DNA of 64,000 bases from Candidatus Uhrbacteria bacterium RIFCSPLOWO2_01_FULL_47_17 (GTDB lineage: Bacteria > Patescibacteriota > Patescibacteriia > UBA9934 > GWF2-40-263). Where the stretch lies: the NCBI GenBank assembly GCA_001791305.1, contig MGEI01000004.1, positions 61,101-125,100 on the forward strand, read 5' to 3'. Position numbers and translations under genes: made by a program. Below are positions 3,644 to 60,796 of this stretch, one piece after another. How positions within the stretch are numbered: the first letter of the stretch is position 1; each line of letters starts with the position of its first letter. Under the pieces are notes generated by a model that made no database searches, was not told the DNA's origin, and was given only the letters and a program-made list of their open reading frames with translations.

Positions 3644-3674
3644 ATTTTTGTGGGGCGAAGGGGGAAGGGCTGCA

Positions 3675-5607: not shown

Positions 5608-5651
5608 GGGTACTCCGTGCGAACTCGGTGGTTCGCGTCTGGGTGGTTGGG

Positions 5652-5801: not shown

Positions 5802-5891
5802 GGTGTCGATCTCCGTGCGAACTCGATGGCTCGCGTCTGGGCTGTGGACTGGTCGATTCGTTCGACGCAGGAATCCGAGGGTAGGTCGATT

Positions 5892-6027: not shown

Positions 6028-6211
6028 TCAGGTTTCTGAGTCGAGTTACATAAAAAGACCCATTGCTTTGCGTATCCAAGCATGAGAGATACGAAAACCA
6101 ATCGGTCTTATTATTTGCTATCAGTGAATGGGACTGGATAGCTCAGCTCTCTCCCCGTTTGAGTTGTAAGGTGAAGAAGTGATCTTGTCGCTTCGTCATC
6201 TTGATGGACAT

Positions 6212-40356: not shown

Positions 40357-40395
40357 TGACGATTGCTCGCAATCTGTTTAAATGTGCTCGTATTT

Positions 40396-41424: not shown

Positions 41425-41426
41425 AT

Positions 41427-42593: not shown

Positions 42594-42596
42594 TGT

Positions 42597-43547: not shown

Positions 43548-43556
43548 ATTTTCATT

Positions 43557-44375
43557 ATGGATATACTGATCCGTCCAACAACACAGTGGTGGAAATTTGA
43601 TTGGAAGGAATTCTGGCAGTTTCGAGATTTGTTTTATTTTTTTGCATGGCGGGATATTAAGGTTCGCTATAAACAAACAGCCATTGGTGCACTTTGGGCC
43701 GTGTTTCAACCATTTGTGACCATGGTTGTGTTCACAATCTTTTTTGGAAATCTGGCAAAAATCTCATCGGATGGAATTCCATATCCAATTTTTGTGTACG
43801 TCGGACTTTTATTTTGGACCTTGTTTAGCGCAGGTTTATCCGATGTGAGTAATACATTCATTGGAAATCAAAACATCATCACCAAAGTTTACTTTCCACG
43901 CATTATTTTGACATTTACGAGTTTGACAACATCGATAATTGATTTTTTTGTGGCCTGTATTGTTCTTATTGGAATGATGATTTGGTATCACTTTATTCCA
44001 TCGACAATTGCGTTAATTTTTATTCCGTTTTTATTTGTCATCACATTTTTAACGACAGTGGGAATCGGGTTGTTTTTTTCTTCTTTTAATGTGAAATACC
44101 GAGATGTGCGTTTTATTTTACCGTTTTTCATACAACTTCTTTTGTTTTTGACCCCAGTCATCTACCCTGTAAGTCTTGTGTCTCCTGAGTGGCGTTGGGT
44201 TCTAGGATTCAATCCAATGTCCGGTGTGATTGATACAGCGCGTGTTGTACTTCTCGGAGTTGGTCATGTTGATTGGCTACTTTTAAGCATTTCGATGTTT
44301 GTGAGTGTGGTCTATTGCTTGATTGGATACGGGTATTTCAAGGGGACCGAACGTTATTTTGCAGATGTGATTTAA
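43557..44375 (+). CDS. wzm: ABC-2 type polysaccharide export permease
   Basis: 6-TM ABC-2 permease profile. Confidence 0.75.
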   Translation: MDILIRPTTQWWKFDWKEFWQFRDLFYFFAWRDIKVRYKQTAIGALWAVFQPFVTMVVFTIFFGNLAKISSDGIPYPIFVYVGLLFWTLFSAGLSDVSNTFIGNQNIITKVYFPRIILTFTSLTTSIIDFFVACIVLIGMMIWYHFIPSTIALIFIPFLFVITFLTTVGIGLFFSSFNVKYRDVRFILPFFIQLLLFLTPVIYPVSLVSPEWRWVLGFNPMSGVIDTARVVLLGVGHVDWLLLSISMFVSVVYCLIGYGYFKGTERYFADVI

Positions 44376-44399
44376 CTGATTGTTTTATTTCTCTTTATT

Positions 44400-45614
44400 A
44401 TGTCTGCAATTATTGAAGTGAATAACTTAGGAAAAAAATACTTAATTGGTGAGAAGGAACGTTATTTAGCGTTGCGCGATAAGTTGGCACACCCAATAAA
44501 AGCACTCAAAAATACTCGGTCGAGTGAAGTATTTTGGGCACTTAGTGATATAAGTTTTTCTGTCGAGAAAGGCGAAGTGTTAGGTATTATTGGAAAAAAT
44601 GGTTCTGGAAAAAGTACATTGTTAAAAATTTTGTCTAAAATTACTCCTCCAACAACAGGGGAAGTTTGTTTGCGTGGACGTGTTGGTAGTCTACTAGAAG
44701 TAGGCACAGGATTTCATCCTGAACTTACTGGTCGAGAGAATATTTATTTAAGTGGATCGATTCTTGGAATGCGTAAAAAAGAGATAGATAAAAAATTCGA
44801 GGAAATCGTAAATTTTTCTGGTGTGGAGGCATTTCTTGATACGCCGATTAAACGTTATTCATCCGGAATGTCTGTTCGACTCGGATTTGCGGTTGCGGCT
44901 CATCTTGAGCCAGAGATTTTGTTAGTGGACGAAGTTTTGGCTGTTGGGGATGCAGAATTTCAAAAAAAGTGTTTAGGAAAAATGGGGGAGATTACAAAAC
45001 AGGGTGCGCGAACAATCATTTTTATAAGTCATAACATGGCGGCGATTAATCAGTTGTGCGACAGGGTTCTTTTGTTAGAAAATGGACATATTAAAAAAAA
45101 TGATACTCCCGAAAGTGTCGTGAGTGAATACCTTCGTGATTTGACACATCAAGGTGGTATTTGGGAACGCACATCATCCAAAACAGTAGCTGAAGATCAT
45201 TTTGTGAAATCTGTTATTTTACAAAACAGTAAAAAAATTAATACAAGAGTTTTTTTTGCTAACGAATCTATTCGGATACAATGTTGCATTGTAAGCAAGA
45301 AGCAGGAAAATATATTTTTGGCAGTCGGTATTCGTGATGTGCTCTCAAATCAAATCATTCATCTGAATAGTAAAAATCAGAAAGAAAAATTACAGACGAA
45401 GGCGGGCAAGAATATGTTTCAAGTAGAATTTGAAAATATTTTAAGTGCAGGTGAATATTATGTGACCGTATGGATTGGAGATGCGAGTTTTGTAACGCAA
45501 GATTATGTGAGAGATTGTATTTCATTTTCGGTAGATCTGTCGAATTTGGATACGAGCTATCATTTTGGATCTGTTATTGTTCCAGCGACATGGTCAATGG
45601 TTCATTTAGATTAG
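44400..45614 (+). CDS. wzt: Polysaccharide export ABC ATPase with C-terminal carbohydrate-binding extension
   Basis: Walker A GKNGSGKST, signature YSSGMSVRL, Walker B LLVDEV. Confidence 0.85.
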   Translation: MSAIIEVNNLGKKYLIGEKERYLALRDKLAHPIKALKNTRSSEVFWALSDISFSVEKGEVLGIIGKNGSGKSTLLKILSKITPPTTGEVCLRGRVGSLLEVGTGFHPELTGRENIYLSGSILGMRKKEIDKKFEEIVNFSGVEAFLDTPIKRYSSGMSVRLGFAVAAHLEPEILLVDEVLAVGDAEFQKKCLGKMGEITKQGARTIIFISHNMAAINQLCDRVLLLENGHIKKNDTPESVVSEYLRDLTHQGGIWERTSSKTVAEDHFVKSVILQNSKKINTRVFFANESIRIQCCIVSKKQENIFLAVGIRDVLSNQIIHLNSKNQKEKLQTKAGKNMFQVEFENILSAGEYYVTVWIGDASFVTQDYVRDCISFSVDLSNLDTSYHFGSVIVPATWSMVHLD

Positions 45615-45662
45615 AGTTAGAAATATTGATTCGTTAAGAATTATTTTGGGTGAGCACAATTT

Positions 45663-46604
45663 ATGGCATTTAAAAAAGGCGCCCAGAGACCATTCCGTTT
45701 TCATTTTTTTACGGTTTGGTCACACGGACTTTTTCACATCGATGAAATACTTTCTCTTTTACGCAAGGATGAGAATATTGAAATTCTTCGTATTGAGAGA
45801 AATACATTTAAAAATATACGTCGTTTCATTTTTGATTTTTATGGAAGTGATGCGGTTCCTGTTTCGCATTTGAGAGCAAAATTAGCGTATCTGTTCCAAC
45901 AACGAGGACCAAAGGAGGTAATTAATATTTTTGTAAAAAATTACAATCCGCAGGAAGTCTGGGTTGGTTCTCATCCGTTTCGCAAGGAGCAGTGTCAGTA
46001 TATTGTGGAAATAAAAAAACAGATTCGTAATTTATACAATCCAAAAGCGAAGGATCCAAATTTCTGCGTATTCCCCCTTGATAAAGGAGTTTCGCATGAA
46101 CACATGATTCACGCGTCTGATCGCGAGGAGCAGGTGGATTATTATTTGAAACTATTAGGCCATAAAAACGGAATCGAAACTATCGTCAATGACGATAAGG
46201 GTCTCTTATTTGAAAAACCCTATCATATTCATAGACCTGTACAGTATTCTTTTCATCGGCTCCCCATCCATGCACTTTTGGCGAGTATTCTTACGGAAGA
46301 AAAAGGTGTAAGTAAAAAACTTGTGCCAATTATCGATACTCCTCATTTTAAAGGGTTACAAATAGACAGCTTGTATTATAAAAAATACTTAGAGACATTT
46401 CGATTCAGCTATTTGTGCGATGACTATTCGTTGGAGCGGTTTATGCAAGGAAAAAAGATGACAAAGGCAGAGCTTTTGCAACTGCCTCCCATTTTAGTAA
46501 AATCATTAGACAATGGGAAATTTCAGGTATTAGATGGTGTTCATCGTGCGTCTCTGTTACTTTTTGCTGAGATCGAAAAAATAAAATGTGTTCTGTATGA
46601 ATAG
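45663..46604 (+). CDS. Hypothetical protein in polysaccharide locus
   Basis: ORF only; no recognised motif. Confidence 0.35.
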   Translation: MAFKKGAQRPFRFHFFTVWSHGLFHIDEILSLLRKDENIEILRIERNTFKNIRRFIFDFYGSDAVPVSHLRAKLAYLFQQRGPKEVINIFVKNYNPQEVWVGSHPFRKEQCQYIVEIKKQIRNLYNPKAKDPNFCVFPLDKGVSHEHMIHASDREEQVDYYLKLLGHKNGIETIVNDDKGLLFEKPYHIHRPVQYSFHRLPIHALLASILTEEKGVSKKLVPIIDTPHFKGLQIDSLYYKKYLETFRFSYLCDDYSLERFMQGKKMTKAELLQLPPILVKSLDNGKFQVLDGVHRASLLLFAEIEKIKCVLYE

Positions 46605-47262
46605 TTCCACCCCCATTTCGCTTATTTCTATCCTACAGGTTCTCGGTGATGATTATGTTCTCTTAAAAAAGAATGTTGATTTTCCATTGTTTGTTCCAGG
46701 AAGTGATATTGATATTTTAGTAGTCGATCGTTTTATTGCCTCTCGTAGCTTGTGTCAATATTTGCAAGAAAATTTGTCTTTAGAAGACACGTTTGTACAT
46801 ATACAGGAAGAGGCTCAGCATCTATTTGTTGATGTTATACGAGATAATAAACTATGGATTCGAATAGATCTTATAGATCAATTCGGGTATTTTAGGCGTT
46901 TTTCTGTACAGGAATCTTTAAAGATTCAACTTTTTCGTTCCAAAATTAGTTTGAGTGTTGATGGTGCGCGTATTTTTGTTCCATCCAATGAGTTCGATAT
47001 TTTGATGAGATACATGGAATATCTTGAATGGTTTGAAATACGCCCAGATAAGATTAAACATCTCGAATATATTTTACAATGTTCAAATGAACAAGAGCAG
47101 AAGCAATTGATCGATCATTTGCACCAATATATTTCGCTTTTTCATAAAAAATGGCAGGGGGATGTTCCTCAACGCGAGAATAGAATAAAGAGGTTTGCAA
47201 AATACATAATACGATTTTATCGACGAATTTCGCACATCATTTTGCGTATCCGAAATAAATAA
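46588..47262 (+). CDS. Hypothetical protein in polysaccharide locus
   Basis: ORF only. Confidence 0.35.
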   Translation: MFCMNSSTPISLISILQVLGDDYVLLKKNVDFPLFVPGSDIDILVVDRFIASRSLCQYLQENLSLEDTFVHIQEEAQHLFVDVIRDNKLWIRIDLIDQFGYFRRFSVQESLKIQLFRSKISLSVDGARIFVPSNEFDILMRYMEYLEWFEIRPDKIKHLEYILQCSNEQEQKQLIDHLHQYISLFHKKWQGDVPQRENRIKRFAKYIIRFYRRISHIILRIRNK

Positions 47263-47274
47263 CGGATCATTTTT

Positions 47275-48090
47275 ATGATGTATTCATTAAAGATTTTTTG
47301 TGACTGGATGCTGCCCATCGAATTAGAGTTCGATGAGCCAGTAGAGTTGTATGTTGATAAAATTCACGTTGATGTTTCGTTGTGTAAAAAAATTCTCTTG
47401 CTTGTTGAGCCAGATGAGTTGACCCGTTTTTCCGATTGGGTTATTCAGAATCATTCGTACTATCATGCGATCTTGACGCACGAAGAGAAAATATTGAATG
47501 CATGCCCCAACGCACATCTGATGGTATTTGGGCCACCATGGGTTCATTCATATGCGTTTCCGCAAAAAACGTTCGGCGTTTCAACGGTCGTTGGGTTAAA
47601 AAAACAACTGCCAGGACATTGGTTGCGACTTGCATTATGGAGGCGGCAAGAGGAAATATTGATCCCAAAAAAATTTTATACGAGCGAACGAGGGGGTAAG
47701 ATTTTTTGGCGTCTTATGCATCGGATCAAAAACGTTCATATGCCTCTGCTCGGCGAAAGTAAACTCCCTTTATTTGATGCGCAATTTCATATTGCGATTG
47801 AAAATTGTAAAAAAACTTATTGGTTCACAGAAAAATTAACAGATTGTTTTCAAACAAAAACAATTCCTATTTATTGGGGATGTCCCAACATTGGAAATTA
47901 TTTTGATATGCGAGGCATGATTTTGGTAGAGAGTGTTGACGATATTATTGTTGAATGTAACAAGCTCACACCAAGTACGTATGAACAAATGTTGAAATAT
48001 GCGAATGCTAATTATGAAACATCTCTGCGCTATGTTGATTTTGCAGGACGTGTAAAAGAAAAGATTCAAATAGTGATGTCTGTGGAATAG
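47275..48090 (+). CDS. Putative GT10-family alpha-1,3-fucosyltransferase
   Basis: FHIAIENCKKTYWFTEKLTDCFQTKTIPIYWG resembles GT10 motif YLAFENS…Y(V/I)TEKLW; GDP-fucose pathway genes adjacent. Confidence 0.45.
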   Translation: MMYSLKIFCDWMLPIELEFDEPVELYVDKIHVDVSLCKKILLLVEPDELTRFSDWVIQNHSYYHAILTHEEKILNACPNAHLMVFGPPWVHSYAFPQKTFGVSTVVGLKKQLPGHWLRLALWRRQEEILIPKKFYTSERGGKIFWRLMHRIKNVHMPLLGESKLPLFDAQFHIAIENCKKTYWFTEKLTDCFQTKTIPIYWGCPNIGNYFDMRGMILVESVDDIIVECNKLTPSTYEQMLKYANANYETSLRYVDFAGRVKEKIQIVMSVE

Positions 48091-48092
48091 AT

Positions 48093-49034
48093 ATGAAAAA
48101 CGACTTATCAATCGATGTTGTCATTCCGGTATTTAATGGTGCGGCCTTCATTGAAGAGGCTTTGATTTCTGTTGTGCAACAAACATTTCTTCCGCATCAG
48201 ATATTTGTGATCAATGATGGCTCAACAGATAATACTTCTGAAATCGTGGAGAAATTTGCCAAAACAAGCACTGTACCTATCATACAGATACAGAAAAAAA
48301 ATGGTGGACCAAGTTCCGCTCGTAATGCGGGTATTCGGATGAGTACGAGTCAGTATATTGCTTTTTTGGATGCAGATGATGTTTGGCAAGCAGATAAACT
48401 TTCTTCACAAATATCGATTTTCGAAGCATCCTCAGACGAGACTTTAGGAATCGTCTATGGACGATATTCACTCATGAATGAACAAGGTGTTGAGATCCAT
48501 GAGACGTTTTATAATCCAAAGGTATGTTTAAAAGGTTTGATCTTTTCTTCTTTGTTGGGATCAAATAAAATCTGCGGAAGTGGAAGTGCTGTGTTGATAA
48601 AACGAACTTGTTTTGATTGTGTTGGATATTTCGACGAAACATTACGAGCAGCGGAAGATTGGGATATGTGGCTCCGATTGGCGGAACGGTACATGTTTGA
48701 TTATGTTGATCATGTAGTTGTTCGAATACGTAGACATGGGGCAAGTATGCAAAAGAATCAAAAAACGTTTTTTTTGAATCAGTTGGCTTTTTATCGCAAA
48801 TGGACGTACATGTTATCAGATCAGAGTCAGGCAGGTGATGAGTGGGCAATATTTTTGGTCGATCAATTGTTACTTAGTATTCGATTTTTCAATTTTGATA
48901 CAATATTTGTGACAGCAATTTATTCAATCCCAAAAGACACAAAAAAGAAAATTTTTTGGAAGTCGCATGGTTTTATCCTTTTGTATATATGTAGAAGAGT
49001 TTTGTATATCATTTCTTGTAAAATAAAAAAGTGA
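48093..49034 (+). CDS. Family 2 glycosyltransferase
   Basis: VVIPVFNGAAFIEEAL…INDGSTDNT, DxD. Confidence 0.75.
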   Translation: MKNDLSIDVVIPVFNGAAFIEEALISVVQQTFLPHQIFVINDGSTDNTSEIVEKFAKTSTVPIIQIQKKNGGPSSARNAGIRMSTSQYIAFLDADDVWQADKLSSQISIFEASSDETLGIVYGRYSLMNEQGVEIHETFYNPKVCLKGLIFSSLLGSNKICGSGSAVLIKRTCFDCVGYFDETLRAAEDWDMWLRLAERYMFDYVDHVVVRIRRHGASMQKNQKTFFLNQLAFYRKWTYMLSDQSQAGDEWAIFLVDQLLLSIRFFNFDTIFVTAIYSIPKDTKKKIFWKSHGFILLYICRRVLYIISCKIKK

Positions 49035-50029
49035 TAAATATGTCGTACGTATCATCTTTTCAAAACGTACAACCAAAAATCAGTGTTATTATGCCCGTTT
49101 ATAACGGGTCTCGTTATTTATGTGAAGCAATCGAAAGCATCTTAAAACAAACGTACAGTGATTTTGAATTGATTATCGTTGATGATTTTTCAACCGATAA
49201 TACTGTTGATTTGATAAAAGAATATCAAGCAAAAGACAAGCGTGTTCATCTATATAAAAACGCATTCACGAAGGGGATTGTTGGTTCGTTAAATACGGGC
49301 TTGGCCCACGCTTCCGGTTTGTATATTGCAAGGGCAGATGCGGATGATGTGAATCTACCATCACGATTCATGGATCAAGTTAACATGTTAGAACAGAATC
49401 CAGATATCGTATTGGTGGGTGCGGGATGTCGAGTTTTTTCAGAGAAAGGATTCGGAAAATCGATTTATCGACCCAGTTCAGCAGTTGAATTGGCGTGGCG
49501 TCTTATCAGCGATACGTATTTTTGTCATCCTGTGACGATGTATCGAAAAGAAATCGCCACAGCATTTCATGGATACGCACAAAAAGAAGCGGAAGATTTC
49601 GATTTATTCTCTAGGATTATTAAAAAACACCAAACAAGAAATTTGCACAAAGTATTACTAAACTATCGCGAGCATTCATCGAATCGTTCAAAAGAAGCTG
49701 CGCAAGCGATTGCTAAAAGTGTACACAATATTTTCTTAGATAATTTTGAATACTATTTTGGAACAACGAGAAATGCAGATAAATTCTTTGCATTTCAGCA
49801 TGATGGAATTATGCATGTGAGTGATTTTATTTTAATCACACGCATGAACCTCCAAATTATTCGAAAGATATTGTTGGATTATCACATATCTTTTTTCTCT
49901 CGAGAAGTATTTTTTTGCACCAATAAAATATTCTTCTTGCAATGTCGTGCGCTTTTTTCGCGATGGATATCAAGCTTAAAAATGATCTTACGTTCATTCT
50001 ATCGATACTTACTTGGAAAGTCGTTATGA
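49031..50029 (+). CDS. Family 2 glycosyltransferase
   Basis: ISVIMPVYNGSRYLCEAIESILKQTY…IIVDDFSTDNT. Confidence 0.75.
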   Translation: MINMSYVSSFQNVQPKISVIMPVYNGSRYLCEAIESILKQTYSDFELIIVDDFSTDNTVDLIKEYQAKDKRVHLYKNAFTKGIVGSLNTGLAHASGLYIARADADDVNLPSRFMDQVNMLEQNPDIVLVGAGCRVFSEKGFGKSIYRPSSAVELAWRLISDTYFCHPVTMYRKEIATAFHGYAQKEAEDFDLFSRIIKKHQTRNLHKVLLNYREHSSNRSKEAAQAIAKSVHNIFLDNFEYYFGTTRNADKFFAFQHDGIMHVSDFILITRMNLQIIRKILLDYHISFFSREVFFCTNKIFFLQCRALFSRWISSLKMILRSFYRYLLGKSL

Positions 50030-51099
50030 AAATTCTCTATACAGCATTGAAATATGATTACGGTGATCCTGCCCGAGGGTATAGTTTTGAACACTATAAT
50101 TTTTATGATGCCCTTATAAAAATGGAGGGGGGAAAACATGAAATTCTCTATTTTCCATTTGATGAAATTGGCGCATCCCTTGGCAGGGAAGGATTGAATA
50201 AAAAGATGTTAGAGGTTGTACGATCAGAAAAACCGGATTTGTGCTTCTTTTTTCTTTTTGAACATGAATTCGATTTTGAAACAATTAATGAAATCACTCA
50301 GAATTCAGGAAGCAAAACATTTGCATGGTTTTCGGACGATCAATGGCGGTTTCAAAATTATTCAAAACATTACGCACCTTGTTTTCATTGGATATCCACA
50401 ACAGATAAACGAGCTGTGGAAAAATATAGAAAAATTGGTGTTTACAATGTCATTAAATCTCAGTGGGCCTGCAATCATTATTTGTATCATCCAAAAGATC
50501 GTGTGAACATTGGACAACCAGTTCGTAATGAAATTACATTTGTTGGACAGCCACACGGAAATCGTAAGCAAGTTATTCGTGCGTTGGAAAAAAGACATCT
50601 CCCCGTCGTCTGCTATGGGAATGGCTGGCCTCAAGGAAGAATTTCTCAAGAAGAAATGATTGAGGTATTTGAATGTAGTAAAATAAATCTGAACTTAACA
50701 AAGGCGAGTGCTGTACGACGCATGCCAAATTTTGTGTATGTGTTTTTGCATAAGGAGAATGGTGTGATTAAATTGAGATCTTGGAAAAAGATTTGGGAAG
50801 ATCTCCGTTTTTCATTTCGAAAAACACAAGAGCAAATTAAAGGGCGTAATTTTGAAGTACCTGGATGTGGAGGGTTTCTTCTGACTGGATATGCGGAAGA
50901 TTTGGAAAAATATTATGTGGAAGGAAAAGAGGTTGTTGTATTTCGTGGAATTAAAGATCTTGCAAAAAAAGCGTATTATTATTCAACACATGAAGAAGAG
51001 CGTAAACAGATCGCGCGTGCGGGATTCGAACGAACGGTGAAGGATCATACGTATGAAAAACGATTTCAAGAAATTTTTCACATAATGGGCTTGGAATAA
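50026..51099 (+). CDS. CgeB-like glycosyltransferase (DUF3880/GT1-like)
   Basis: Start MKILYTALKYDYGDP (ATGA overlap with upstream GT2); CgeB-family layout. Confidence 0.45.
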   Translation: MKILYTALKYDYGDPARGYSFEHYNFYDALIKMEGGKHEILYFPFDEIGASLGREGLNKKMLEVVRSEKPDLCFFFLFEHEFDFETINEITQNSGSKTFAWFSDDQWRFQNYSKHYAPCFHWISTTDKRAVEKYRKIGVYNVIKSQWACNHYLYHPKDRVNIGQPVRNEITFVGQPHGNRKQVIRALEKRHLPVVCYGNGWPQGRISQEEMIEVFECSKINLNLTKASAVRRMPNFVYVFLHKENGVIKLRSWKKIWEDLRFSFRKTQEQIKGRNFEVPGCGGFLLTGYAEDLEKYYVEGKEVVVFRGIKDLAKKAYYYSTHEEERKQIARAGFERTVKDHTYEKRFQEIFHIMGLE

Positions 51100-51101
51100 T
51101 T

Positions 51102-51863
51102 ATGCCTAGAATGAGTGTCATTCTTCCTGTGTTTAACGCAGAGAAGACAATTCAACAATCTATTCAGAGTGTGCTGAATCAAACCTTTAGGGACTTTGAA
51201 TTGATTGTGATTGATGATGGTTCAACAGATGAAACACAAAAAATTATTCAAGGGATTCAGGATGCTCGTGTTATTTGCATAAAAAATGAAAAAAATCTTG
51301 GTTTGCAAAAAACATTGAATCTTGGATTACAAAAAGCAGTTGGGACATACATTGCACGGATAGACGCGGATGATACTTGGATTGATCGCAACAAGTTGTT
51401 ACACCAAATTTCGTTTTTAGATACCCGTCCTCTTGTCGTTCTTGTTGGTACGGGTGCTGTTGTGATGAAAGCTGGTCAAGAACTATTTCGTTTCCTTAAC
51501 CCATCTTCTGACGTCGATATTCGTCGAATTCTTTTGGGGAAAAATACGTTTGTTCATTCAAGTGTTGTATTTAAACGAGACGCAGCACTGCGTGTTGGAG
51601 GGTATTCAGAAGATGTGACGGTAACGCATGTGGAGGATCATGATCTTTGGTTAAAATTAGGGACACAAGGTATGCTCGCGAATTTGGCGGAGTATGATAT
51701 ACAATACACGTTGTCAGAGACACAAATTAGCAGCCGCCATAAGCGTATTCAATTTTTTCGAGATGTTTTACTGGTCAATAAATATGCAAATAAGTATCCA
51801 GGAAAATGGCGAGCATGGATTCGCGGGTTGATGAGGTTGGGATATTATGGTTTTTTGAAATAA
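51102..51863 (+). CDS. Family 2 glycosyltransferase
   Basis: MSVILPVFNAEKTIQQSIQSVLNQTFRDFELIVIDDGSTDET. Confidence 0.75.
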   Translation: MPRMSVILPVFNAEKTIQQSIQSVLNQTFRDFELIVIDDGSTDETQKIIQGIQDARVICIKNEKNLGLQKTLNLGLQKAVGTYIARIDADDTWIDRNKLLHQISFLDTRPLVVLVGTGAVVMKAGQELFRFLNPSSDVDIRRILLGKNTFVHSSVVFKRDAALRVGGYSEDVTVTHVEDHDLWLKLGTQGMLANLAEYDIQYTLSETQISSRHKRIQFFRDVLLVNKYANKYPGKWRAWIRGLMRLGYYGFLK

Positions 51864-51867
51864 TTAT

Positions 51868-52767
51868 ATGCGTTTTAGTATCGTCATTCCAACATTTGAG
51901 CGGCAACAATCACTTCATGAGTGTTTGTCTTCGATTTTATTACAATCACGTCTTCCAGACGAGGTAATTATTGTAGATGATGGTACGCTGTCAGAAGTGT
52001 TTATTACAGATGAAAGAGAGCGATTTAAACAATCGAAATGCACACTTTCATATTACAGAAAAGATCATGTGCAAGTATCACGAGGCACTTCCATTTCACG
52101 CAATATCGGAATGAGCCTCGCACGTGAGGAGGTTGTATTTATTTTGGATGATGACTTGTTTCTTGAAAAAAATTTTCTGGATGAGATTATGTCTGTTTGG
52201 GAGCGTGAAGATTGCACAAGTATTATCGGGATTGGTGGTGTGATTTTAAACAACCGAAAAAAGTCTTTGCTTGAATTATTTTTCAATCATGTATTTGTTC
52301 TTGAATCAACATATTCGTGGGATGTGACGGATGTGGGGTATCAAACATGGAATGATGGAATCCAAAAGTGTGTTCGTGGTTTTTATGAGCATGGTGGTGC
52401 TTGTTCGTACCGAAAAACATTCGTGATGAAATTGGGTGGTTTTACCGTGTTGAATGATGGACGAACAGCGCTTGAAGATGTTGAGTTTGCACTGCGTGCA
52501 AAACGTTCAGGACTTGGTTATTTTATTGAACCGCGCGCTCGCACAGAACATAACCATGCTTTAGGCGGACGAACATCTAAATGGAGGAGTGCATTTCAGG
52601 AAAGTCAAAACAGAAAATGGATTTTTCAAACGATGTGTAAGCAAGACGTTCTGCATCAGCTTTGGTTTGTGTGGTCATCTACCGGATGGATACTGCGACA
52701 ATTTTTGAGTGGGCAGTTTCAAAAGGGATTTGGTATGATTATTGGTTTTTTTGTGCGAAACGTATGA
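51868..52767 (+). CDS. Family 2 glycosyltransferase
   Basis: FSIVIPTFERQQSLHECL…VIIVDDG. Confidence 0.7.
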   Translation: MRFSIVIPTFERQQSLHECLSSILLQSRLPDEVIIVDDGTLSEVFITDERERFKQSKCTLSYYRKDHVQVSRGTSISRNIGMSLAREEVVFILDDDLFLEKNFLDEIMSVWEREDCTSIIGIGGVILNNRKKSLLELFFNHVFVLESTYSWDVTDVGYQTWNDGIQKCVRGFYEHGGACSYRKTFVMKLGGFTVLNDGRTALEDVEFALRAKRSGLGYFIEPRARTEHNHALGGRTSKWRSAFQESQNRKWIFQTMCKQDVLHQLWFVWSSTGWILRQFLSGQFQKGFGMIIGFFVRNV

Positions 52768-53876
52768 ATATTCTTTATGTCATTACGAAATCTTCTCGTG
52801 GAGGTGCACAACAGCATGTTCGTGATCTTGCAATAGCATTTCAGGATCAAAAAAATACGGTCACTGTTGCGATTGGTGAGAAAGGCGGATGGTTACACGA
52901 TCAGTTGACGGAACGTGGAATCGGAGTCGAATATGTTCGTTTATCACGAACATGGAATCCGCTTGTTTTTTTTGCATACATGATCGACCTGATGCGTATT
53001 CTGAAGAATATTAAACCCGAGATCGTGCATTTTCATAGCTCACATACGTTAATCGGTACATGGATTGTTCGTTTTTGTTTTACGCATATTAAATCAATTG
53101 TTACTGTTCATGGCTTAAGTTTGCTTTATCCAGGAGCAGCAAAAAAATGGATACAAGCAATATACGCATTTTTTTTGCGCAGCGTTTTTTTGAGTGCAGA
53201 TCGAGTAATTTCTGTATGTTTATTTGATAAAAAAATACTGCTCGAACAAAAACTTGTTACACAGAATAACATAGAGATGATCCATAATGGAGTATTTACA
53301 CCTGCTTTTTTTACGCCTGAGGAGGCTCGAATGCAAATTGGACTTCCGTTAGGTGTAACGATCATTGGAACTCTTGCCCGCTTTTCGTATCAAAAAAATC
53401 TTTCATTTTTGATTGAATCTTTTGCTGCATGGAATCACCCAAGCGCCTTGCTTTGTTTGATCGGAAGTGGAACAGAGGAAGGGATGTTGAAACAACTTGT
53501 GCGCGATCAAGGGATTGAGGATCGCGTATTTTTTCGACAAGGAGATGCAACTGTATTGAAAGCGTTTTCCTGTTTCGTTCTTTCATCCCGTTACGAAGGT
53601 TTTCCGTACGTTCTTCTTGAATCCGCTCTTGCCCAAGTTCCTCTTATTGCCACAAATGTAGGAGGAGTTTCTGAACTGATTGAACAAAATCAAACAGGCT
53701 GGTTGATCCCATCTAGCGACATTCCTGCACTTGTACAAGCATTGAATGATGTTGTGTTCGATGCAGATCGCGCGAAAAGATATGCACGTGCAGCACAAGC
53801 TCGCGTACAGTCAAATTTTATGATTGAATCGATGATTCAAAAAATAGATAGACTTTATCAGTCGCTCAACGACTAA
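52764..53876 (+). CDS. Family 4 (GT1-fold) glycosyltransferase
   Basis: Start MNILYVITKSSRGGAQQHV (ATGA overlap); EGFPYVLLESALAQVPLIATNVGG. Confidence 0.75.
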   Translation: MNILYVITKSSRGGAQQHVRDLAIAFQDQKNTVTVAIGEKGGWLHDQLTERGIGVEYVRLSRTWNPLVFFAYMIDLMRILKNIKPEIVHFHSSHTLIGTWIVRFCFTHIKSIVTVHGLSLLYPGAAKKWIQAIYAFFLRSVFLSADRVISVCLFDKKILLEQKLVTQNNIEMIHNGVFTPAFFTPEEARMQIGLPLGVTIIGTLARFSYQKNLSFLIESFAAWNHPSALLCLIGSGTEEGMLKQLVRDQGIEDRVFFRQGDATVLKAFSCFVLSSRYEGFPYVLLESALAQVPLIATNVGGVSELIEQNQTGWLIPSSDIPALVQALNDVVFDADRAKRYARAAQARVQSNFMIESMIQKIDRLYQSLND

Positions 53877-56876: not shown

Positions 56877-58514
56877 ATGCATAAATTTATTTTCGTTGTT
56901 GGTGGCGTCATGTCTGGCGTTGGAAAAGGCGCGGCGACTGCATCGCTTGGGCGTGTGCTTCAAGAAAAAGGATATAAGGTCACGGCGATTAAAATCGATC
57001 CGTATATTAACGTTGATGCGGGAACCATGAATCCAGTTGAGCACGGCGAGGTGTTTGTGACGGTCGACGGTGACGAGACGGATCAAGACGTTGGAAACTA
57101 CGAGCGTTTTCTCGAAACCTCGATTTTGTCGATCAATTACATGACAACTGGTCGTGTGTATCAGTCCGTCATTCAACGCGAGCGCAATCTTGGTTATGGC
57201 GGTCGAACGGTTCAAGTTGTGCCAGATGTTCCAAATGAAGTGATCGAACGCATTGAGAACGCGACGGAGCGGGCGAACGCAGATTTTACCTTGATCGAGA
57301 TTGGAGGAACTGTCGGTGAGTACGAGAACATTTTGTTTCTTGAAGCAGCTCGACTCATGCGCATGAAGTATCCAGACCAAGTACGAAACATCCTCGTGAG
57401 TTACATGCCAGTGCCTGGATCTCTCGGCGAGATGAAGACAAAACCAACGCAACAAGCGGTTAGAACCATGATGGCGGCCGGGATGTATCCGGATTTTGTG
57501 ATTGCAAGATCCACATTGCAAATCGACGAGCCGCGTAAAAAGAAACTCGCGATGTTCTCAAATGTCCACGCTGAACAAGTCATTGGTTCGCCGGATGTAA
57601 AATCGATCTATGAAATTCCAGTCGTGTTCGAGAAACAACAGTTCGGCGATAAGATTTTGAAATCATTTGGCATGAAAGAATTGCCAGAGAAAAAATTGGT
57701 GAAGTGGAAGAGGCTGCTTGCCTCGATTGTAAACACAAAAGGGGAAGTGAAGATCGGTGTGATCGGCAAGTACTTCTCGACGGGAGACTTCACCCTTTCG
57801 GACGCGTACATCTCCGTCATCGAAGCGATCAAGCATGCGTCGTGGGCGAATGGCCGCACGCCGAAACTTGTTTGGCTGAACTCGGAAGCGTACGAGAAGA
57901 GCCCCGCGAAGTTGAAAGAACTCGATGATCTCGACGGTGTTGTCATTCCTGGAGGATTTGGATCGCGCGGGATTGAGGGAAAGATTAAAGCGATTCGCTA
58001 CTGTCGCGAAAACAAAATTCCGTATCTTGGACTCTGTTATGGAATGCAATGTGCGGTGATCGAGTACGCTCGCAATGTGCTGAAGCTGAAAGATGCGAAT
58101 ACGACGGAGATTAATCCAAAAACAAAACATCCGGTGATTCACTTGTTGCCGGGACAAGAAGAGAAGATGAAAGAGGGAAGTTATGGCGGCACGCTGCGTC
58201 TCGGATCGTATCCGTGTAAGCTCGCCGCAAACACCACAGCGCGAAAAGCCTACGACGAGCCACAAGTCGACGAGCGTCATCGTCATCGCTATGAGTTTAA
58301 CAACGAATATCGCGCCGCGCTCGAAAAGGCCGGGCTTGTGATCTCGGGAGTGAATCCAGAGCAAGATCTCGTCGAGATTGTTGAGCTGAAGAACCATCCG
58401 TTCTTTGTTGGAGTCCAATTCCACCCAGAGTTTCAATCAAGACCGCTCAGTCCACATCCGTTGTTTAAGGCCTTTGTGAAGGCGGCGGTTGGGAAGAAGG
58501 GCAGAAAGGGCTGA
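56877..58514 (+). CDS. pyrG: CTP synthase
   Basis: MHKFIFVVGGVMSGVGKGAATASLGRVL…; GATase domain GLCYGMQ, Cys-His. Confidence 0.95.
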   Translation: MHKFIFVVGGVMSGVGKGAATASLGRVLQEKGYKVTAIKIDPYINVDAGTMNPVEHGEVFVTVDGDETDQDVGNYERFLETSILSINYMTTGRVYQSVIQRERNLGYGGRTVQVVPDVPNEVIERIENATERANADFTLIEIGGTVGEYENILFLEAARLMRMKYPDQVRNILVSYMPVPGSLGEMKTKPTQQAVRTMMAAGMYPDFVIARSTLQIDEPRKKKLAMFSNVHAEQVIGSPDVKSIYEIPVVFEKQQFGDKILKSFGMKELPEKKLVKWKRLLASIVNTKGEVKIGVIGKYFSTGDFTLSDAYISVIEAIKHASWANGRTPKLVWLNSEAYEKSPAKLKELDDLDGVVIPGGFGSRGIEGKIKAIRYCRENKIPYLGLCYGMQCAVIEYARNVLKLKDANTTEINPKTKHPVIHLLPGQEEKMKEGSYGGTLRLGSYPCKLAANTTARKAYDEPQVDERHRHRYEFNNEYRAALEKAGLVISGVNPEQDLVEIVELKNHPFFVGVQFHPEFQSRPLSPHPLFKAFVKAAVGKKGRKG

Positions 58515-58585
58515 GAAGGCGGAAAGGTCGAAAAATAAAAAAGAATCAAAATCGCCATAAAAGTGGCGATTTTTGCTTGGAATCA

Positions 58586-58614
58586 TTGACAAAATGCCCA
58601 ATTTATGGTATATT
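58586..58614 (+). promoter_or_regulatory. Promoter CATTGACAAAATGC-N17-TATATT for GC-rich islet 3
   Basis: TTGACA 58586-58591, TGgTATATT 58606-58614. Confidence 0.55.
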
Positions 58615-58657
58615 GCTCTGTCTCAAATAGGATTTTGTAGATCCGGGAGGTGCCTGA

Positions 58658-59121
58658 TGGAGACACAGGGCGTGAAGGAAGTTCCTTCCAATGATGATGT
58701 GGTAACTCGAATGGCGTTTGCGATGGGCGCGTTTTTCATGACCGCTCTCACGCTTGCGGCTGTCTTTGCCATTTGGAAAATCCACATTGCCACAGACTTT
58801 CGGAATATCGTGGGTGGCGGGATCTTGATTGTCGTTTTTGCGTCGATCATGAGTCGATTTATGTCCAGGCAAACGGATCCGGTTCGTACGGCGTTTATTG
58901 GAAACATCATCATGATGTGGACGTACGCTTCCGTCTTCGACGCATACATCAAGCGAAAGCCCCCAGCAATTTTGGATCTTGCCCTTGCGGTAATAATGGT
59001 CTACCAGATCATCTTGGCGCTTCGCAGTGCGGCTCTCGCGCTGAACTGGACGATCCCGATTCTGTTAGGTCAGCAGCTGGTCCTGGGTGCGAGTCTGTAC
59101 GGCTTGTATCATCTCCTCTAA
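58658..59121 (+). CDS. Polytopic membrane protein (GC-rich islet 3)
   Basis: GGGAGG SD then METQGVKEV…; 4 predicted TM helices; GC ~58%. Confidence 0.4.
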
Positions 59122-59148
59122 ACCCGTCGCATTGCGACAGGAGGTTCC

Positions 59149-59676
59149 ATGGTTTCTTTGCTCGAGATCATCTTTGCGACCGTGACCCTTGTCTGGGCTG
59201 GTCTGCTCGTTTACCGGCAGAACTGGCTGGTTGCTTACAAAGCAGCAGCCTACTTGCTCGGCGCGTTCCTCCTGTTCGCGATGTGGAATCGTCCACTCGC
59301 CGGCCAGTGGGGCATGACGAGCTACGGCCCGTTCATCGTGATTCTCGCGACGATCGGCGTTGCGATCGTGGGCAACTGGGCCTATCGTCGTTGGAGTGCG
59401 GATAATCGTGTGACAATCGCGATCGCGATCATGTCGCTCGGTTTGGTACTGGTGTTCTGGTATCCGTTCTTCGTAGCGGGTCCAAGCTCCATCACCCCGT
59501 CGATCCCGACGGCCCCGACGCCCGTAGCTTCGGCTCCGACTCCGGCGCCCTCAGCCCCTCCTTCGTCTGCTCCAGTTTCCCGTCCGCGTCGTGCACCTCA
59601 GGTGTTCGACCTGTCGGATTGCCCGAACCTGTCGTACGAATGGCAGAAGGACCTCGGATGTCCCCAGGCCAACTAG
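59149..59676 (+). CDS. Polytopic membrane protein with Pro/Ala/Ser-rich C-terminal tail (GC-rich islet 3)
   Basis: GGAGG SD; TM helices then PSIPTAPTPVASAPTPAPSAPPSSAP tail ending CPNLSYEWQKDLGC. Confidence 0.4.
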   Translation: MVSLLEIIFATVTLVWAGLLVYRQNWLVAYKAAAYLLGAFLLFAMWNRPLAGQWGMTSYGPFIVILATIGVAIVGNWAYRRWSADNRVTIAIAIMSLGLVLVFWYPFFVAGPSSITPSIPTAPTPVASAPTPAPSAPPSSAPVSRPRRAPQVFDLSDCPNLSYEWQKDLGCPQAN

Positions 59677-59683
59677 CCTCTTA

Positions 59684-59718
59684 CCCGAGCTTGTTTCACA
59701 AGCTCGGGTATTTTCTTT
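59684..59718 (+). terminator. Rho-independent terminator after islet 3 (CCCGAGCTTG-TTTCAC-AAGCTCGGG + U-run)
   Basis: 10-bp stem then TATTTTCTTT. Confidence 0.6.
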
Positions 59719-59774
59719 GAAAAAAGCTTGAAAAGCTTTAAATGTCAGAAATGGGGATAACGCTCTGAAAATAC

Positions 59775-59803
59775 TTGACGGAAAACCCCTTTTTCTTTAT
59801 ACT
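59775..59803 (+). promoter_or_regulatory. Sigma70-like promoter TTGACG-N17-TATACT upstream of rpmA
   Basis: cttgacggaaaacccctttttctttatact. Confidence 0.55.
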
Positions 59804-59833
59804 TTCGGACGAATCAACTATTTACTATTTTCT

Positions 59834-60115
59834 ATGGCACATAAAAAAGCCGGAGGGTCTACCTCGCTTGGACGCGATTCCGTGTCAAAGCGTCTTGGGG
59901 TAAAGATCTCCGATGGACAAATTATCAAAGCTGGACAGATTCTTGTTCGCCAACGCGGAACAAAAATTCATCCAGGATTGAATGTCAAAAAAGGCAAAGA
60001 TGACACTTTGTATGCGGCAATCGACGGTTTCGTGAAATTCACCCAAAAGAAAATGAAGAATTTTCATGGAGTTCTCGCAACACGCCGTTTCGCAAGCATT
60101 TCAGAAAAAAGATAA
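59834..60115 (+). CDS. rpmA: 50S ribosomal protein L27
   Basis: [24 protein letters not shown]… canonical L27. Confidence 0.9.
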
Positions 60116-60154
60116 CGTGCATTGCACGTTATTTTGTTATATACTATTCCTGAT

Positions 60155-60391
60155 ATGGATCCACAAATGCAAACCAAAATTGAAGAGGTTCTCACCATGA
60201 TTCGCCCAGCACTCCGAATGGACGGAGGTGGAATCGAGCTTGTGGCATATGATGCAGAAAAGGGAATCGTGAGTGTTAAAATGCAAGGTGCGTGCGTTGG
60301 GTGCCCTATGTCTCAAATCACCTTGAAGATGGGGGTGGAGGCTGCACTTCGCGATGCGATCCCATCAATCACGGAAGTTATTTCTGTTTAG
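60155..60391 (+). CDS. NifU-like Fe-S cluster scaffold domain protein (Nfu)
   Basis: IRPALRMDGGGIELV…GACVGCPMSQITLK (CxxC). Confidence 0.7.
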   Translation: MDPQMQTKIEEVLTMIRPALRMDGGGIELVAYDAEKGIVSVKMQGACVGCPMSQITLKMGVEAALRDAIPSITEVISV

Positions 60392-60394: not shown

Positions 60395-60796
60395 ATGAAA
60401 TTTTCAAAACGTCTTCAGTTTTTTTTCACCGATATGCATGAGTGGCTCCGCACCAAAACGGGAGCCTGGTGTTTTGTCTCAGCCCTTTTTTTGTTGGCGC
60501 TTACGGTTGCGCTTCCTATTTGGCGTATCTTGCCCCTTGCAGAATCGCGACCGTTTATTCCGCTTCATTATAATATTTACCTAGGGGTGGATAGACTGGG
60601 TCCTTGGTATCAAATTTTTATTGTCCCCGCACTCGGATTCGGATTGTTTTTGTTTCATCTCGTTTTACAAACGATCGCCTTTCGAAAAGAAAAATTGCTT
60701 GCAACCATGCTTGCGATTGCGATTGTGCTTATCGAAGCCATTTTACTCTTTGCGATGACACTCATTGTTCTTCTCAATTTATCCTATGCCGCTTAA
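60395..60796 (+). CDS. Hypothetical 4-TM membrane protein
   Basis: Hydrophobic ORF between nfu and mraY. Confidence 0.35.
   Translation: MKFSKRLQFFFTDMHEWLRTKTGAWCFVSALFLLALTVALPIWRILPLAESRPFIPLHYNIYLGVDRLGPWYQIFIVPALGFGLFLFHLVLQTIAFRKEKLLATMLAIAIVLIEAILLFAMTLIVLLNLSYAA

Follow-up and report, generated by a model that had tools for sequence, protein, structure and literature searches.

A GC-rich membrane-protein locus between pyrG and rpmA of Uhrbacteria is probably resident, fast-evolving and recombining

The GC-rich unit of two membrane-protein genes that lies between pyrG and rpmA in Candidatus Uhrbacteria bacterium RIFCSPLOWO2_01_FULL_47_17 is probably not an insertion but a resident, vertically inherited, fast-evolving and recombining locus of the Uhrbacteria (Patescibacteria/CPR). 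Vertical descent is argued because synonymous divergence resembles that of the neighbouring genes, relatives retain the promoter and terminator, and the unit is free of repeats, tRNA and mobility genes. From its features we infer that the second gene, ORF2, may encode a surface-displayed knob formed by a disulfide loop. All coordinates refer to the window, the whole 64,000-nt stretch of contig MGEI01000004.1 that was analysed.

A transcription unit between pyrG and rpmA

ORF1 and ORF2 are real genes and form a promoter-to-terminator transcription unit of their own between pyrG and rpmA, both flanking genes having their identity confirmed by Pfam. The unit and its borders comprise the following elements:

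58548-58573, plus strand: probable pyrG terminator, a hairpin and T-run right after the pyrG stop
58586-58614, plus strand: sigma-70-type promoter of the unit, TTGACA-17-TATATT with a TGn extended -10, 11/12 match
58645-58652, plus strand: ORF1 Shine-Dalgarno sequence GGGAGGTG, 6 nt 5' of the ATG, read directly
58657-59121, plus strand: ORF1, 154 aa, polytopic membrane protein (ORF list and hydropathy)
59126-59138, plus strand: small hairpin GTCGC-ATT-GCGAC abutting the ORF2 Shine-Dalgarno sequence, read directly
59139-59144, plus strand: ORF2 Shine-Dalgarno sequence AGGAGG, 4 nt 5' of the ATG, read directly and also found in L010
59149-59676, plus strand: ORF2, 175 aa, membrane protein (ORF list and hydropathy)
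59682-59718, plus strand: intrinsic terminator of the unit, a 13-bp stem (59682-59710) and T-run
59775-59803, plus strand: separate rpmA promoter, TTGACG-17-TATACT, 10/12 match, outside the unit and marking its downstream boundary

A sequence-only reading of this DNA had described two plus-strand membrane-protein ORFs with Shine-Dalgarno sites, and their positions and lengths are exactly as it gave them. The near-consensus promoter, the strong terminator after ORF2 and the separate rpmA promoter that it had pointed to are likewise present.

The signals around the two genes are conserved. The hairpin 3' of pyrG (10-bp stem, -14.2 kcal/mol, z = -3.9) is found at the equivalent spot in most relatives, and the promoter core of the unit is near-invariant among all close relatives, including loci with an RNA-ligase gene 5' of the promoter. 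At locus L010 this promoter drives ORF2 directly, and similar TTGACAAAA...TATATT promoters stand 5' of the ORF2 homologs in L012, L013 and L017. The ORF1 Shine-Dalgarno sequence is kept as GGGAGGTG or GGGGGGTG among relatives. The small hairpin before ORF2 is not significant when folded alone (z = -0.8); L010, L012, L013 and L017 have hairpins of other sequence at this position. The terminator folds at -22.1 kcal/mol (z = -6.7 against shuffles) and is kept among relatives, where its stem has changed in a compensatory way (TACCCGAGCTTG/CAAGCTCGGGTA versus GCCAGGTTTCC/GGAACCTGGC), while the rpmA promoter is invariant across 7 relatives. A search of 58400-60200 against Rfam returned sub-threshold chance matches only. 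Tandem repeats in the region are trivial.

The ORF2 protein and its family

At the protein level ORF2 matches A3C09_01860, a hypothetical protein of Candidatus Uhrbacteria bacterium RIFCSPHIGHO2_02_FULL_47_44, with 100% identity. It divides into three parts:

59149-59484, plus strand: residues 1-112, four-helix membrane anchor, predicted N-out/C-out
59485-59619, plus strand: residues 113-157, Pro/Ser/Ala/Thr-rich stalk with a basic patch, SRPRRAP, at its end
59620-59676, plus strand: residues 158-175 and stop, C-terminal Cys-x12-Cys-Pro loop CPNLSYEWQKDLGCPQAN

Hydropathy gives four hydrophobic helices, and an AlphaFold2 model built from a 33-sequence alignment (pLDDT 82.7) shows four transmembrane helices and a terminal helical hairpin; a model from an 11-sequence alignment (pLDDT 55) was too poor for use. 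The anchor helices span residues 2-23, 28-50, 60-82 and 86-110 with pLDDT of about 90 or higher, the stalk has no secondary structure (pLDDT 60-64), and the Cys-loop region forms short helices at 155-160 and 163-169 (pLDDT 81-86). The Pro/Ala/Ser-rich tail and C-terminal cysteine pair noticed earlier are indeed there, as C158-x12-C171, and the C-terminus reads ...SRPRRAPQVFDLSDCPNLSYEWQKDLGCPQAN. The stalk has a conserved AGPSSITPSIPTAPSPVASAPT followed by a variable stretch, and its indels are in frame. Across the family the tail is composed of 18% P, 13% S, 11% A, 8% T and 7.6% R. Net charge is +2 in each of loops 1 and 3 and about 0 in the N-terminus and loop 2, so by the positive-inside rule, which is the sole basis for this topology, the tail is predicted to lie outside the cell membrane.

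A profile of the close family, run with hmmsearch against 1.84 billion proteins at E <= 1e-3, recovered 33 representatives, 13 of them at E <= 1e-10 and most matched over nearly their full length. The members are 160-197 aa long and all have the same build, with a four-TM anchor of predicted N-out/C-out topology, an unstructured PAST stalk of ~45 residues, an Arg-rich patch and a terminal C-x12-15-C that is usually followed by Pro. ORF2 itself shows all three features of the family (transmembrane helices with basic loops, stalk plus C-x12-15-C, and a full-length profile match). In the alignment of the 33 members no column is invariant except those of the two cysteines, and nearly all members carry the motif C-x3-[LYM]-[ST]-x3-[RK]-x3-G-C-P at the extreme C-terminus. 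This invariance suggests that the two cysteines form a disulfide. Because the ORF2 alleles of L001 and L015 have lost both cysteines, the loop is not indispensable.

Judged from sequence, these proteins are a small, unannotated envelope-protein family that is newly defined here. Neither ORF1 nor ORF2 matched Pfam or NCBIfam, and all 33 family members gave only scattered, non-recurrent transmembrane noise against Pfam. Searches of both proteins against PHROGs yielded nothing below E = 0.2 and PADLOC gave no match, which places neither among phage genes or anti-phage defence genes. For ORF2, PDB sequence profiles returned nothing significant and fold searches were empty or non-specific; a literature search for a described family of this type found nothing relevant.

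ORF1 is restricted to one sub-clade

ORF1 has 4-5 hydrophobic (TM) segments by hydropathy and matched nothing in a PDB sequence-profile search. A profile search of 5.8 billion proteins returned only 6 clusters. The gene is present in 8/9 distinct close loci and absent from L010 and from all distant relatives, a lineage-specific distribution that agrees in part with the earlier reading of acquisition. On this distribution ORF1 is a clade-restricted accessory gene that appears to have been added later between the conserved promoter and ORF2; it may have arisen de novo or have been transferred into the ancestor of the clade. Given its place between promoter and ORF2, it would be co-transcribed with ORF2. 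We rejected the idea that ORF1 is a diverged duplicate of the ORF2 anchor (hhalign probability 1.5%).

The locus holds its position in distant relatives

The ORF1-ORF2 pair occurs inside the pyrG-rpmA interval in L001-L009, L014 and L015. An ORF2 homolog immediately follows pyrG and precedes rpmA in every close relative and in 5/5 distant relatives for which long contigs are available (L012, the JGI contig of P0022, L013, L017 and L018), the distant homologs being 27-35% identical; in four of these five relatives pyrG is 61-92% and L27 67-82% identical to the window's. On one short contig, L011, a PP2C gene instead of pyrG stands 5' of the ORF2 homolog. Genome and metagenome scans based on the close alignment brought in L014-L016 and no further loci. 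In L004, a gene of 171 aa close to L9 was considered as a second ORF2 paralog and rejected from its sequence.

The downstream neighbourhood rpmA-nifU-mraY-ftsW-murG is invariant across the lineage, and the entire L9-pyrG-...-murG block is syntenic among relatives. The interval carries variable cargo in relatives, namely an RNA ligase, a thymidine kinase and a HicA-like pair. Among hallmarks of mobility, flanking repeats at the unit are short chance ones only, no tRNA lies within 25 kb, and the window's ORF list contains no integrase or transposase gene.

Rapid divergence and recombination within ORF2

Close relatives share 90-98% identity in the flanking genes but only 31-49% in ORF1 and 55-74% in ORF2. 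Nucleotide identity is ~85% in pyrG, drops to ~50% across ORF1 and to 36-60% over the ORF2 tail, and is back at ~90% in rpmA. dN/dS is 0.30-0.47 for ORF1, 0.16-0.35 for ORF2 and 0.02-0.16 for the flanks; values below 1 do not show positive selection, and relaxed constraint would yield equal averages. By these estimates both genes are under purifying selection, and their amino acids change 5-20 times faster than those of the neighbours. dS for ORF1 and ORF2 is 0.67-1.69, inside the neighbours' range of 0.24-3.6, although the values are partly saturated. Whole-gene dS like that of the neighbours favours co-inheritance with them.

These measurements also bear on the idea that the ORFs are not genes, GC-rich DNA being prone to long spurious frames. 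A 210-aa ORF in another frame (58773-59405) overlaps both genes; from its out-of-frame GC1/GC3 pattern we took it for a by-product of GC richness and rejected it. For the annotated frames, dN/dS well below 1, in-frame stalk indels, a coherent profile family with invariant cysteines, a confident AlphaFold2 model, Shine-Dalgarno sites and a promoter conserved across relatives leave chance with practically no probability.

Within ORF2, identities of anchor and tail disagree: P0005 and P0010 are 45% identical in the anchor versus 92% in the tail, and P0004 and P0009 are 88% versus 46%. The ORF2 anchor of L014 is L010-type, with a dS of 0.57 against about 1.5 for mraY and nifU, and its tail is L007-type, with a dS of 0.18 to L007 where the anchor has 1.38 and the flanks about 0.5. 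Such discordant histories of anchor and tail indicate intragenic recombination, and since module dS lies either below or above that of the flanks, they point to allele exchange among related lineages and not to import from outside. As read from these alignments, amino-acid change and module exchange concentrate at this locus, a local hotspot within surroundings that are 90-98% conserved.

The same pattern weighs on a possible role in envelope synthesis or division. A lineage-specific accessory factor of these processes, kept beside rpmA-nifU-mraY-ftsW-murG for functional reasons, would fit the invariance of the mraY-ftsW-murG neighbourhood and a membrane protein with a predicted extracytoplasmic Pro-rich segment. 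However, the unit is transcribed separately, with a terminator and the rpmA promoter intervening; it evolves 5-20 times faster than the division genes, and core machinery would not usually exchange alleles or, as some lineages here have done, lose an element such as the Cys loop. As the entire L9-pyrG-...-murG block is syntenic, adjacency to mraY-ftsW-murG may be mere inheritance. We regard this role as unlikely.

Base composition and the question of acquisition

The earlier claim of atypical composition stands, with corrections: the excess at third codon positions is real, but GC of 58650-59680 is 56.5% and not ~58%, and ORF1 reaches only 51.2%. ORF2 carries most of the GC excess (GC 60.4-60.7%, GC3 71%), compared with a GC3 of 63% in ORF1, a GC of 49.3% in pyrG and a GC3 of 38-55% in the flanking genes; across the window, gene GC3 is heterogeneous, from 28 to 85%. 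From its amino acids and the codon usage of the flanks, ORF2 would be expected to have 54.1% GC, and about half of the excess is due to amino-acid composition and half to GC3. Stratified by amino acid (Mantel-Haenszel), the GC3 excess has an odds ratio of 2.3 for ORF2 (p = 2e-6) and 1.6 for ORF1 (p = 0.01).

High GC3 in ORF2 extends to all close relatives and 4/5 distant lineages, for example 66% against 34-48% in the neighbours in L012, 60 against 28-38 in L017 and 62 against 44-49 in L018; the L013 homolog has a host-like GC3 (41%). Its presence in four of the five distant lineages makes it a long-maintained property of the gene and not a sign of recent import.

The sequence-only reading had taken the unit for an acquired cassette, one of several in the window, and had named homologs with host-like composition in the same interval of distant relatives as the finding that would speak against this. 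ORF2 homologs are there, as far out as genomes with pyrG identities of only 61-83%; host-like composition is mostly absent. A recent horizontal transfer of a foreign two-gene cassette would account for GC and GC3 above the neighbours', for a unit with its own promoter and terminator, for an ORF1 with no homologs beyond one sub-clade, and for an interval that accepts variable cargo in relatives. Set against it are ORF2 homologs at the same site in all five distant and all close relatives, neighbour-like dS, conserved regulatory signals, and the absence of repeats, tRNA and integrase; the GC excess, moreover, holds over deep divergence with no amelioration. Nor did kinship with the window's other GC-rich islets hold up, as BLASTP of ORF1 and ORF2 against all six-frame window ORFs of at least 50 aa found no match below E = 0.6 except self, and thus no paralogs. 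For ORF2 the cassette interpretation is largely refuted, and for the unit as a whole we consider it very improbable.

A model for the locus

In the resident-locus interpretation, ORF2 would be the ancestral core, which kept its promoter, terminator and pyrG-rpmA position across the lineage, and ORF1 would have joined later in one sub-clade, between promoter and ORF2. Anchor and tail modules of ORF2 would have been swapped between lineages by homologous recombination. The high GC would come from a protein rich in Pro, Ala, Ser, Thr, Arg and Gly together with GC3 enrichment, which may result from GC-biased gene conversion at this recombining locus. The stalk would carry a small knob, stapled by a disulfide, on the outer side of the cell membrane, where contact with a host cell surface, a phage or some other partner that changes could drive rapid diversification.

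Alternatively, ORF2 could be a membrane-tethered peptide, its Cys loop being set free by a cut at the basic patch to act as a signal or a bacteriocin-like peptide cyclised by a disulfide, with ORF1 as immunity or processing partner. The loop does lie at the extreme C-terminus with Arg-rich residues before it, the alleles are polymorphic with shuffled modules as in pherotype or bacteriocin loci, and a hypervariable membrane partner, ORF1, is presumably co-transcribed. Yet the unit has no adjacent peptidase, ABC exporter, sensor kinase or modification enzyme, PADLOC and Pfam gave no matches, and ORF1 is missing from most lineages that keep ORF2 and lacks any invariant Cys, His or Ser that might point to a catalytic role. 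We know of no precedent for a four-TM leader of a released peptide. Such a peptide system seems improbable.

The resident-locus interpretation can be taken further, to a recognition device specific to Uhrbacteria: a knob on a wall-spanning stalk, with anchor and knob alleles shuffled under frequency-dependent selection by host or phage and recombination keeping the gene GC-rich. We offer this as a speculative possibility, more doubtful than not. If true, CPR bacteria would possess a surface locus that is compact, hypervariable and fixed in position, and ORF2 would be a natural case of GC-biased gene conversion acting on one bacterial gene over the long term.

The locus also indicates that a gene can be a long-standing resident even where it looks like an islet by composition and has a promoter and terminator of its own; GC-based transfer detection would misflag it. 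Members of the ORF2 family serve as a marker of the pyrG-rpmA junction in Uhrbacteria and their relatives. Recognition of hosts or partners by CPR bacteria is almost unexplored, and a search for surface interaction factors could reasonably begin with loci of this kind; for molecular evolution, recombination here goes together with a persistently raised GC3 in a clean case confined to one locus. The family is narrow and its proposed function inferred, which keeps its general importance modest.

Comparison with known systems

AgrB/AgrD cyclic-peptide systems differ from this unit in both components. AgrB is a membrane peptidase with catalytic His and Cys, whereas ORF1 has no Pfam match and no invariant His or Cys, and ORF2 is a four-TM protein of 175 aa and no short precursor.

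ORF2 resembles proteins of the TonB/VirB10/DotF type in having a transmembrane anchor, an extended Pro-rich spacer and a small C-terminal module. Weak PDB sequence matches to DotF (E = 0.38) and VirB10 (E = 4.4), over the TM-plus-linker stretch, are non-significant and compositional. Unlike in these proteins, the anchor of ORF2 has four helices, its C-terminal module is an 18-residue loop and not a folded domain, and no secretion-system or transport genes are nearby.

The D-region of type IV pilins is a short, exposed and variable C-terminal loop closed by two cysteines, which the ORF2 tail resembles without belonging to that class. ORF2 also shares with pilins a hydrophobic N-terminus with a conserved acidic residue (E6). 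It differs in having no class III signal peptide, N-methylation motif or globular beta-sheet pilin domain, four TM helices instead of one, and no pilus genes nearby; neither ORF2 of the window nor any of the 33 family members matched the N_methyl or pilin families of Pfam.

In bacteria, gene GC content has been linked to intragenic recombination (Lassalle et al. 2015, PMC4450053). Like the genes in that study, ORF2 recombines and has a GC3 above that of its neighbours, independent of amino acids. Here the link is a correlation at a single locus, the excess survives deep divergence, and L013 is without it.

In episymbiotic Nanoarchaeota, the genes with most non-synonymous variation encode hypothetical cell-surface proteins, which have the highest density of non-synonymous SNPs (PMC6142677). 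ORF2 has no sequence or fold relationship to them, being built of a four-TM anchor, a PAST stalk and a terminal Cys loop; its locus has a fixed position and documented module exchange, and its surface exposure is predicted. The likeness to the Nanoarchaeota proteins (PMC6142677) is that both are unannotated, lineage-restricted membrane or surface proteins, that both are under purifying selection overall with far more amino-acid change than their housekeeping neighbours, and that both come from radiations of small-genome, presumably host-dependent cells.

Organization of the pyrG-rpmA interval

ORF1 and ORF2 form a transcription unit whose layout is autonomous and conserved, and from which the two genes are probably co-transcribed. 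The sequence-only reading described this anatomy accurately, save that its figure of ~58% GC for 58650-59680 was slightly high; the stretch is GC-rich, at a measured 56.5%.

Features of the pyrG-rpmA interval and its borders
56877-58514, pyrG (CTP_synth_N + GATase, E = 6.5e-100)
58515-59833, pyrG-rpmA interval
58548-58573, hairpin 3' of pyrG (z = -3.9)
58586-58614, promoter, TTGACA-17-TATATT with TG extension (11/12 match)
GGGAGGTG, element between this promoter and ORF1
58657-59121, plus strand, ORF1, 154-aa membrane protein
27-nt spacer between ORF1 and ORF2, containing AGGAGG
59149-59676, plus strand, ORF2, 175-aa membrane protein
59682-59710, terminator, 13-bp stem and T-run (-22.1 kcal/mol, z = -6.7)
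59775-59803, separate promoter of rpmA
59834-60115, rpmA (Ribosomal_L27, E = 7.7e-34)

14 nt 5' of the rpmA -35 hexamer lies a 13-nt box, AAATGGGGATAAC (59749-59761), unchanged in 7 of 7 aligned relatives within a variable spacer; it could bind a regulator of the rpmA-nifU-mraY operon or act as its UP-like element. A short GC-rich hairpin adjoins the ORF2 Shine-Dalgarno site (59126-59138; z = -0.8, not significant in the window alone), and hairpins with other stem sequences occupy the same place in L010 (~555-570) and directly 5' of the Shine-Dalgarno site of the ORF2 homolog in L012, L013 and L017.

Conservation of the locus in close relatives

The ORF2 protein matches hypothetical protein A3C09_01860 of Candidatus Uhrbacteria bacterium RIFCSPHIGHO2_02_FULL_47_44 at 100% identity, and ten more clusters of ORF2-like proteins have 51-74% identity. 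Every long-enough contig carrying one of these ten has the gene order PGI / DUF378 / ahpC / L9 / pyrG / [ORF1-like] / ORF2-like / rpmA / nifU / 133-aa membrane protein / mraY / ftsW / murG. The promoter core is almost invariant among close relatives, and the terminator stem is maintained through compensatory changes. One close relative, L010, lacks ORF1, and there the same promoter drives ORF2 via a 5' leader of ~85 nt. With mraY, ftsW and murG downstream, the locus could encode an envelope or division accessory factor, a reading to which we give a minor but real chance.

Some close relatives, namely L001/2/3 (L001:4041-5369), L007 (4134-5390) and L015 (about 2000-3500), carry a T4 Rnl1-type RNA ligase gene (PF09511) between pyrG and the conserved promoter; it is missing from this place in the window, L004, L008, L009 and L014, so that the pyrG-promoter junction has a presence/absence polymorphism.

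Three observations concern neighbouring genes. L014 (CAYOCD010000003.1) is titled "uncultured Gammaproteobacteria bacterium"; its ahpC-L9-pyrG-...-ftsW block has 80-98% protein identity to the Uhrbacteria window in equal gene order, and the taxonomic label or the contig binning is probably wrong. In L004, three unannotated genes (75, 104 and 171 aa; 1336-2600) occupy the usual place of ahpC, and ahpC homology (76% over 134 aa at ~2558), uncalled as a gene, may mark a pseudogene. The 133-aa hydrophobic protein (window 60395-60796), which all relatives examined carry between nifU and mraY (40-95% identity), has no Pfam or NCBIfam match and is a further lineage-specific membrane protein set within the division/cell-wall cluster.

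ORF2 is resident in distant relatives

Searching 1.84 billion representative proteins with the close-family ORF2 profile (E <= 1e-3) found 33 proteins, all of 102-197 aa. In the full-length members, four hydrophobic helices lead into a linker rich in Pro/Ser/Ala/Thr and then an Arg/Ser-rich stretch, and the protein ends in C-x12-15-C, as a rule with Pro and then the stop codon after it; of the 33-sequence alignment, only the columns of the two cysteines are invariant. Five distant homologs on long contigs (27-35% identity to the window protein) all lie directly 3' of pyrG and 5' of rpmA-nifU-...-mraY-ftsW-murG, and ORF1 is present in none of the five. In the four distant loci whose DNA was compared, identity to the window is 61-92% for pyrG and 67-82% for L27, and like promoters (TTGACAAAA...TG.TATATT) stand 5' of the ORF2 homologs of L012, L013 and L017. 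On one short contig, L011, a PP2C gene takes the place of pyrG upstream. The interval carries differing extra genes: a thymidine kinase in L012 (ORF2 homolog to rpmA, 5559-6167), a 113-aa gene and a HicA-like toxin gene in L013 (5593-6166), and two 78-aa ORFs in L017 (5600-6082), so accessory genes have landed here repeatedly.

The proposal that ORF2 is part of an acquired, inserted cassette is thus contradicted by its homologs in the same interval of distant relatives; ORF2 is vertically resident at this site across the lineage. No flanking repeats above chance surround the unit, and neither tRNA nor mobility genes lie near it. Recent acquisition of ORF1 and ORF2, which their GC content had suggested, is accordingly very improbable. 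The proposed family of cassettes common to three GC-rich islets also lacks support: ORF1 and ORF2 are unrelated to each other and have no paralogs in the window, and the other islets encode a DUF5658 protein, an aminotransferase, a pyruvate-kinase-like protein and a 490-aa ORF (GC3 85%).

ORF1 is clade-specific. Among 5.8 billion proteins its profile recovered just six clusters, all within the close clade. The protein has 4-5 hydrophobic segments and conserves an N-terminal METxxKEVPS, D47, D74-P75, D107, R123 and Q139-x-L-x-LGA-x-LY, with no invariant Cys, His or Ser.

Base composition

Window GC is 46.5% overall and very uneven (34 to 67% across 1-kb windows). The excess at this locus is mainly located in ORF2 (GC 60%, GC3 71%; odds ratio for GC3 2.3, p = 2e-6), with ORF1 at GC 51% and GC3 63% (1.6, p = 0.01) and neighbouring genes at GC3 38-55%. 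Encoding the ORF2 protein with the codon usage of the eight flanking genes would yield 54.1% GC, vs 60.7% observed, so synonymous choice and protein composition (Pro, Ala, Ser, Thr, Arg, Gly) each explain roughly half of its excess over the local ~46%.

A foreign gene is expected to drift towards host composition. The GC3 of ORF2 homologs is 57-77 in all close relatives (neighbours 26-51), 66 in L012 (34-48), 60 in L017 (28-38) and 62 in L018 (44-49); L013, at 41 (23-50), has no excess. The GC3 excess is intrinsic to the gene. Lassalle et al. 2015 (PMC4450053) report that intragenic recombination is associated with GC content in bacteria and interpret this as GC-biased gene conversion; the lasting excess together with demonstrable recombination in ORF2 fits this association. 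GC-biased gene conversion is therefore the likely cause, and selection on codons or mRNA a possible one.

Elsewhere in the window, 1000-6000 is the most GC-rich part (up to 67%), with a DUF5658 membrane protein (1480-1827, minus strand) and the 490-aa ORF (3948-5420, minus strand), which has no Pfam match; truly foreign DNA is more plausible here than at the ORF1/ORF2 locus. A long AT-rich block at 40000-53500 (34-40% GC, gene GC3 28-37%) holds consecutive plus-strand ORFs, and its start may carry sugar-nucleotide, glycosyltransferase and ABC-exporter genes, which it resembles by eye.

Divergence and recombination

Where the pyrG, L27 and mraY proteins of relatives keep 90-98% identity, that of ORF1 drops to 31-49% and that of ORF2 to 55-74%. 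Nei-Gojobori dS of both ORFs (0.67-1.69) falls inside the adjacent-gene range (0.24-3.6), and dN is 5-20 times higher than in adjacent genes. Constraint is purifying but weak: dN/dS is 0.30-0.47 for ORF1 and 0.16-0.35 for ORF2, and 0.02-0.16 for L9, pyrG, L27, nifU, the 133-aa gene and mraY. That the two frames are a non-coding artefact is next to inconceivable.

Nucleotide identity against relatives falls in two troughs, from about 85% in pyrG to about 50-55% in ORF1, then from 72-93% in the ORF2 anchor (the four-helix membrane part) to 36-60% in its tail (stalk and terminal Cys loop), with about 90% in rpmA. These two modules differ in history, and neither agrees with the flanks. L010 is the window's sister by nifU, the 133-aa gene and mraY (95-98%), and their anchors are just 59% identical; the anchors of L010 and L014 are 89% identical, with flanks at 79-90%, and have a dS of 0.57 vs ~1.5 for mraY and nifU. 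Between L007 and L014, dS is 0.18 in the tail, 1.38 in the anchor and ~0.5 in the flanks. Protein identity is 45% in the anchor vs 92% in the tail for ORF2-family proteins P0005 and P0010, and 88% vs 46% for P0004 and P0009. Related lineages have thus exchanged ORF2 modules by homologous recombination, the breakpoint falling close to the anchor/stalk boundary.

Structure and proposed role of ORF2

AlphaFold2, run with the 33-sequence alignment (pLDDT 82.7), predicts helices at 2-23, 28-50, 60-82 and 86-110 (about 90 or higher), an unstructured ~116-154 (~60) and a small helix-turn-helix at 155-169 containing both cysteines (81-86). Fold and sequence comparison with solved structures gave only generic helical bundles or compositional matches. 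Family-wide, loops 1 and 3 each have net charge +2, with no net charge on the N-terminus or loop 2; by the positive-inside rule both termini would be outside, placing stalk and Cys loop in an extracytoplasmic setting where disulfide closure is plausible. Two alleles (L001:6001-6537, L015:4001-4540) are without both tail cysteines (...SRSSDGSEELSPRAKQALENATP) and retain the LSPRAKQA-type core that in L004 lies between them, so the disulfide is dispensable in at least one lineage. Release of the Cys-loop peptide, with ORF1 as partner, is an unlikely use of this tail.

We instead favour a stalked surface knob, by which ORF2 would meet a changing external partner. The locus is of an ordinary kind, a lineage-specific, fast-evolving membrane-protein gene; its architecture is tidy and previously unannotated, and its evolutionary signature is instructive. 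In host-attached ultrasmall prokaryotes the most variable genes are those for cell-surface proteins (PMC6142677), a pattern that the proposed role of ORF2 fits.
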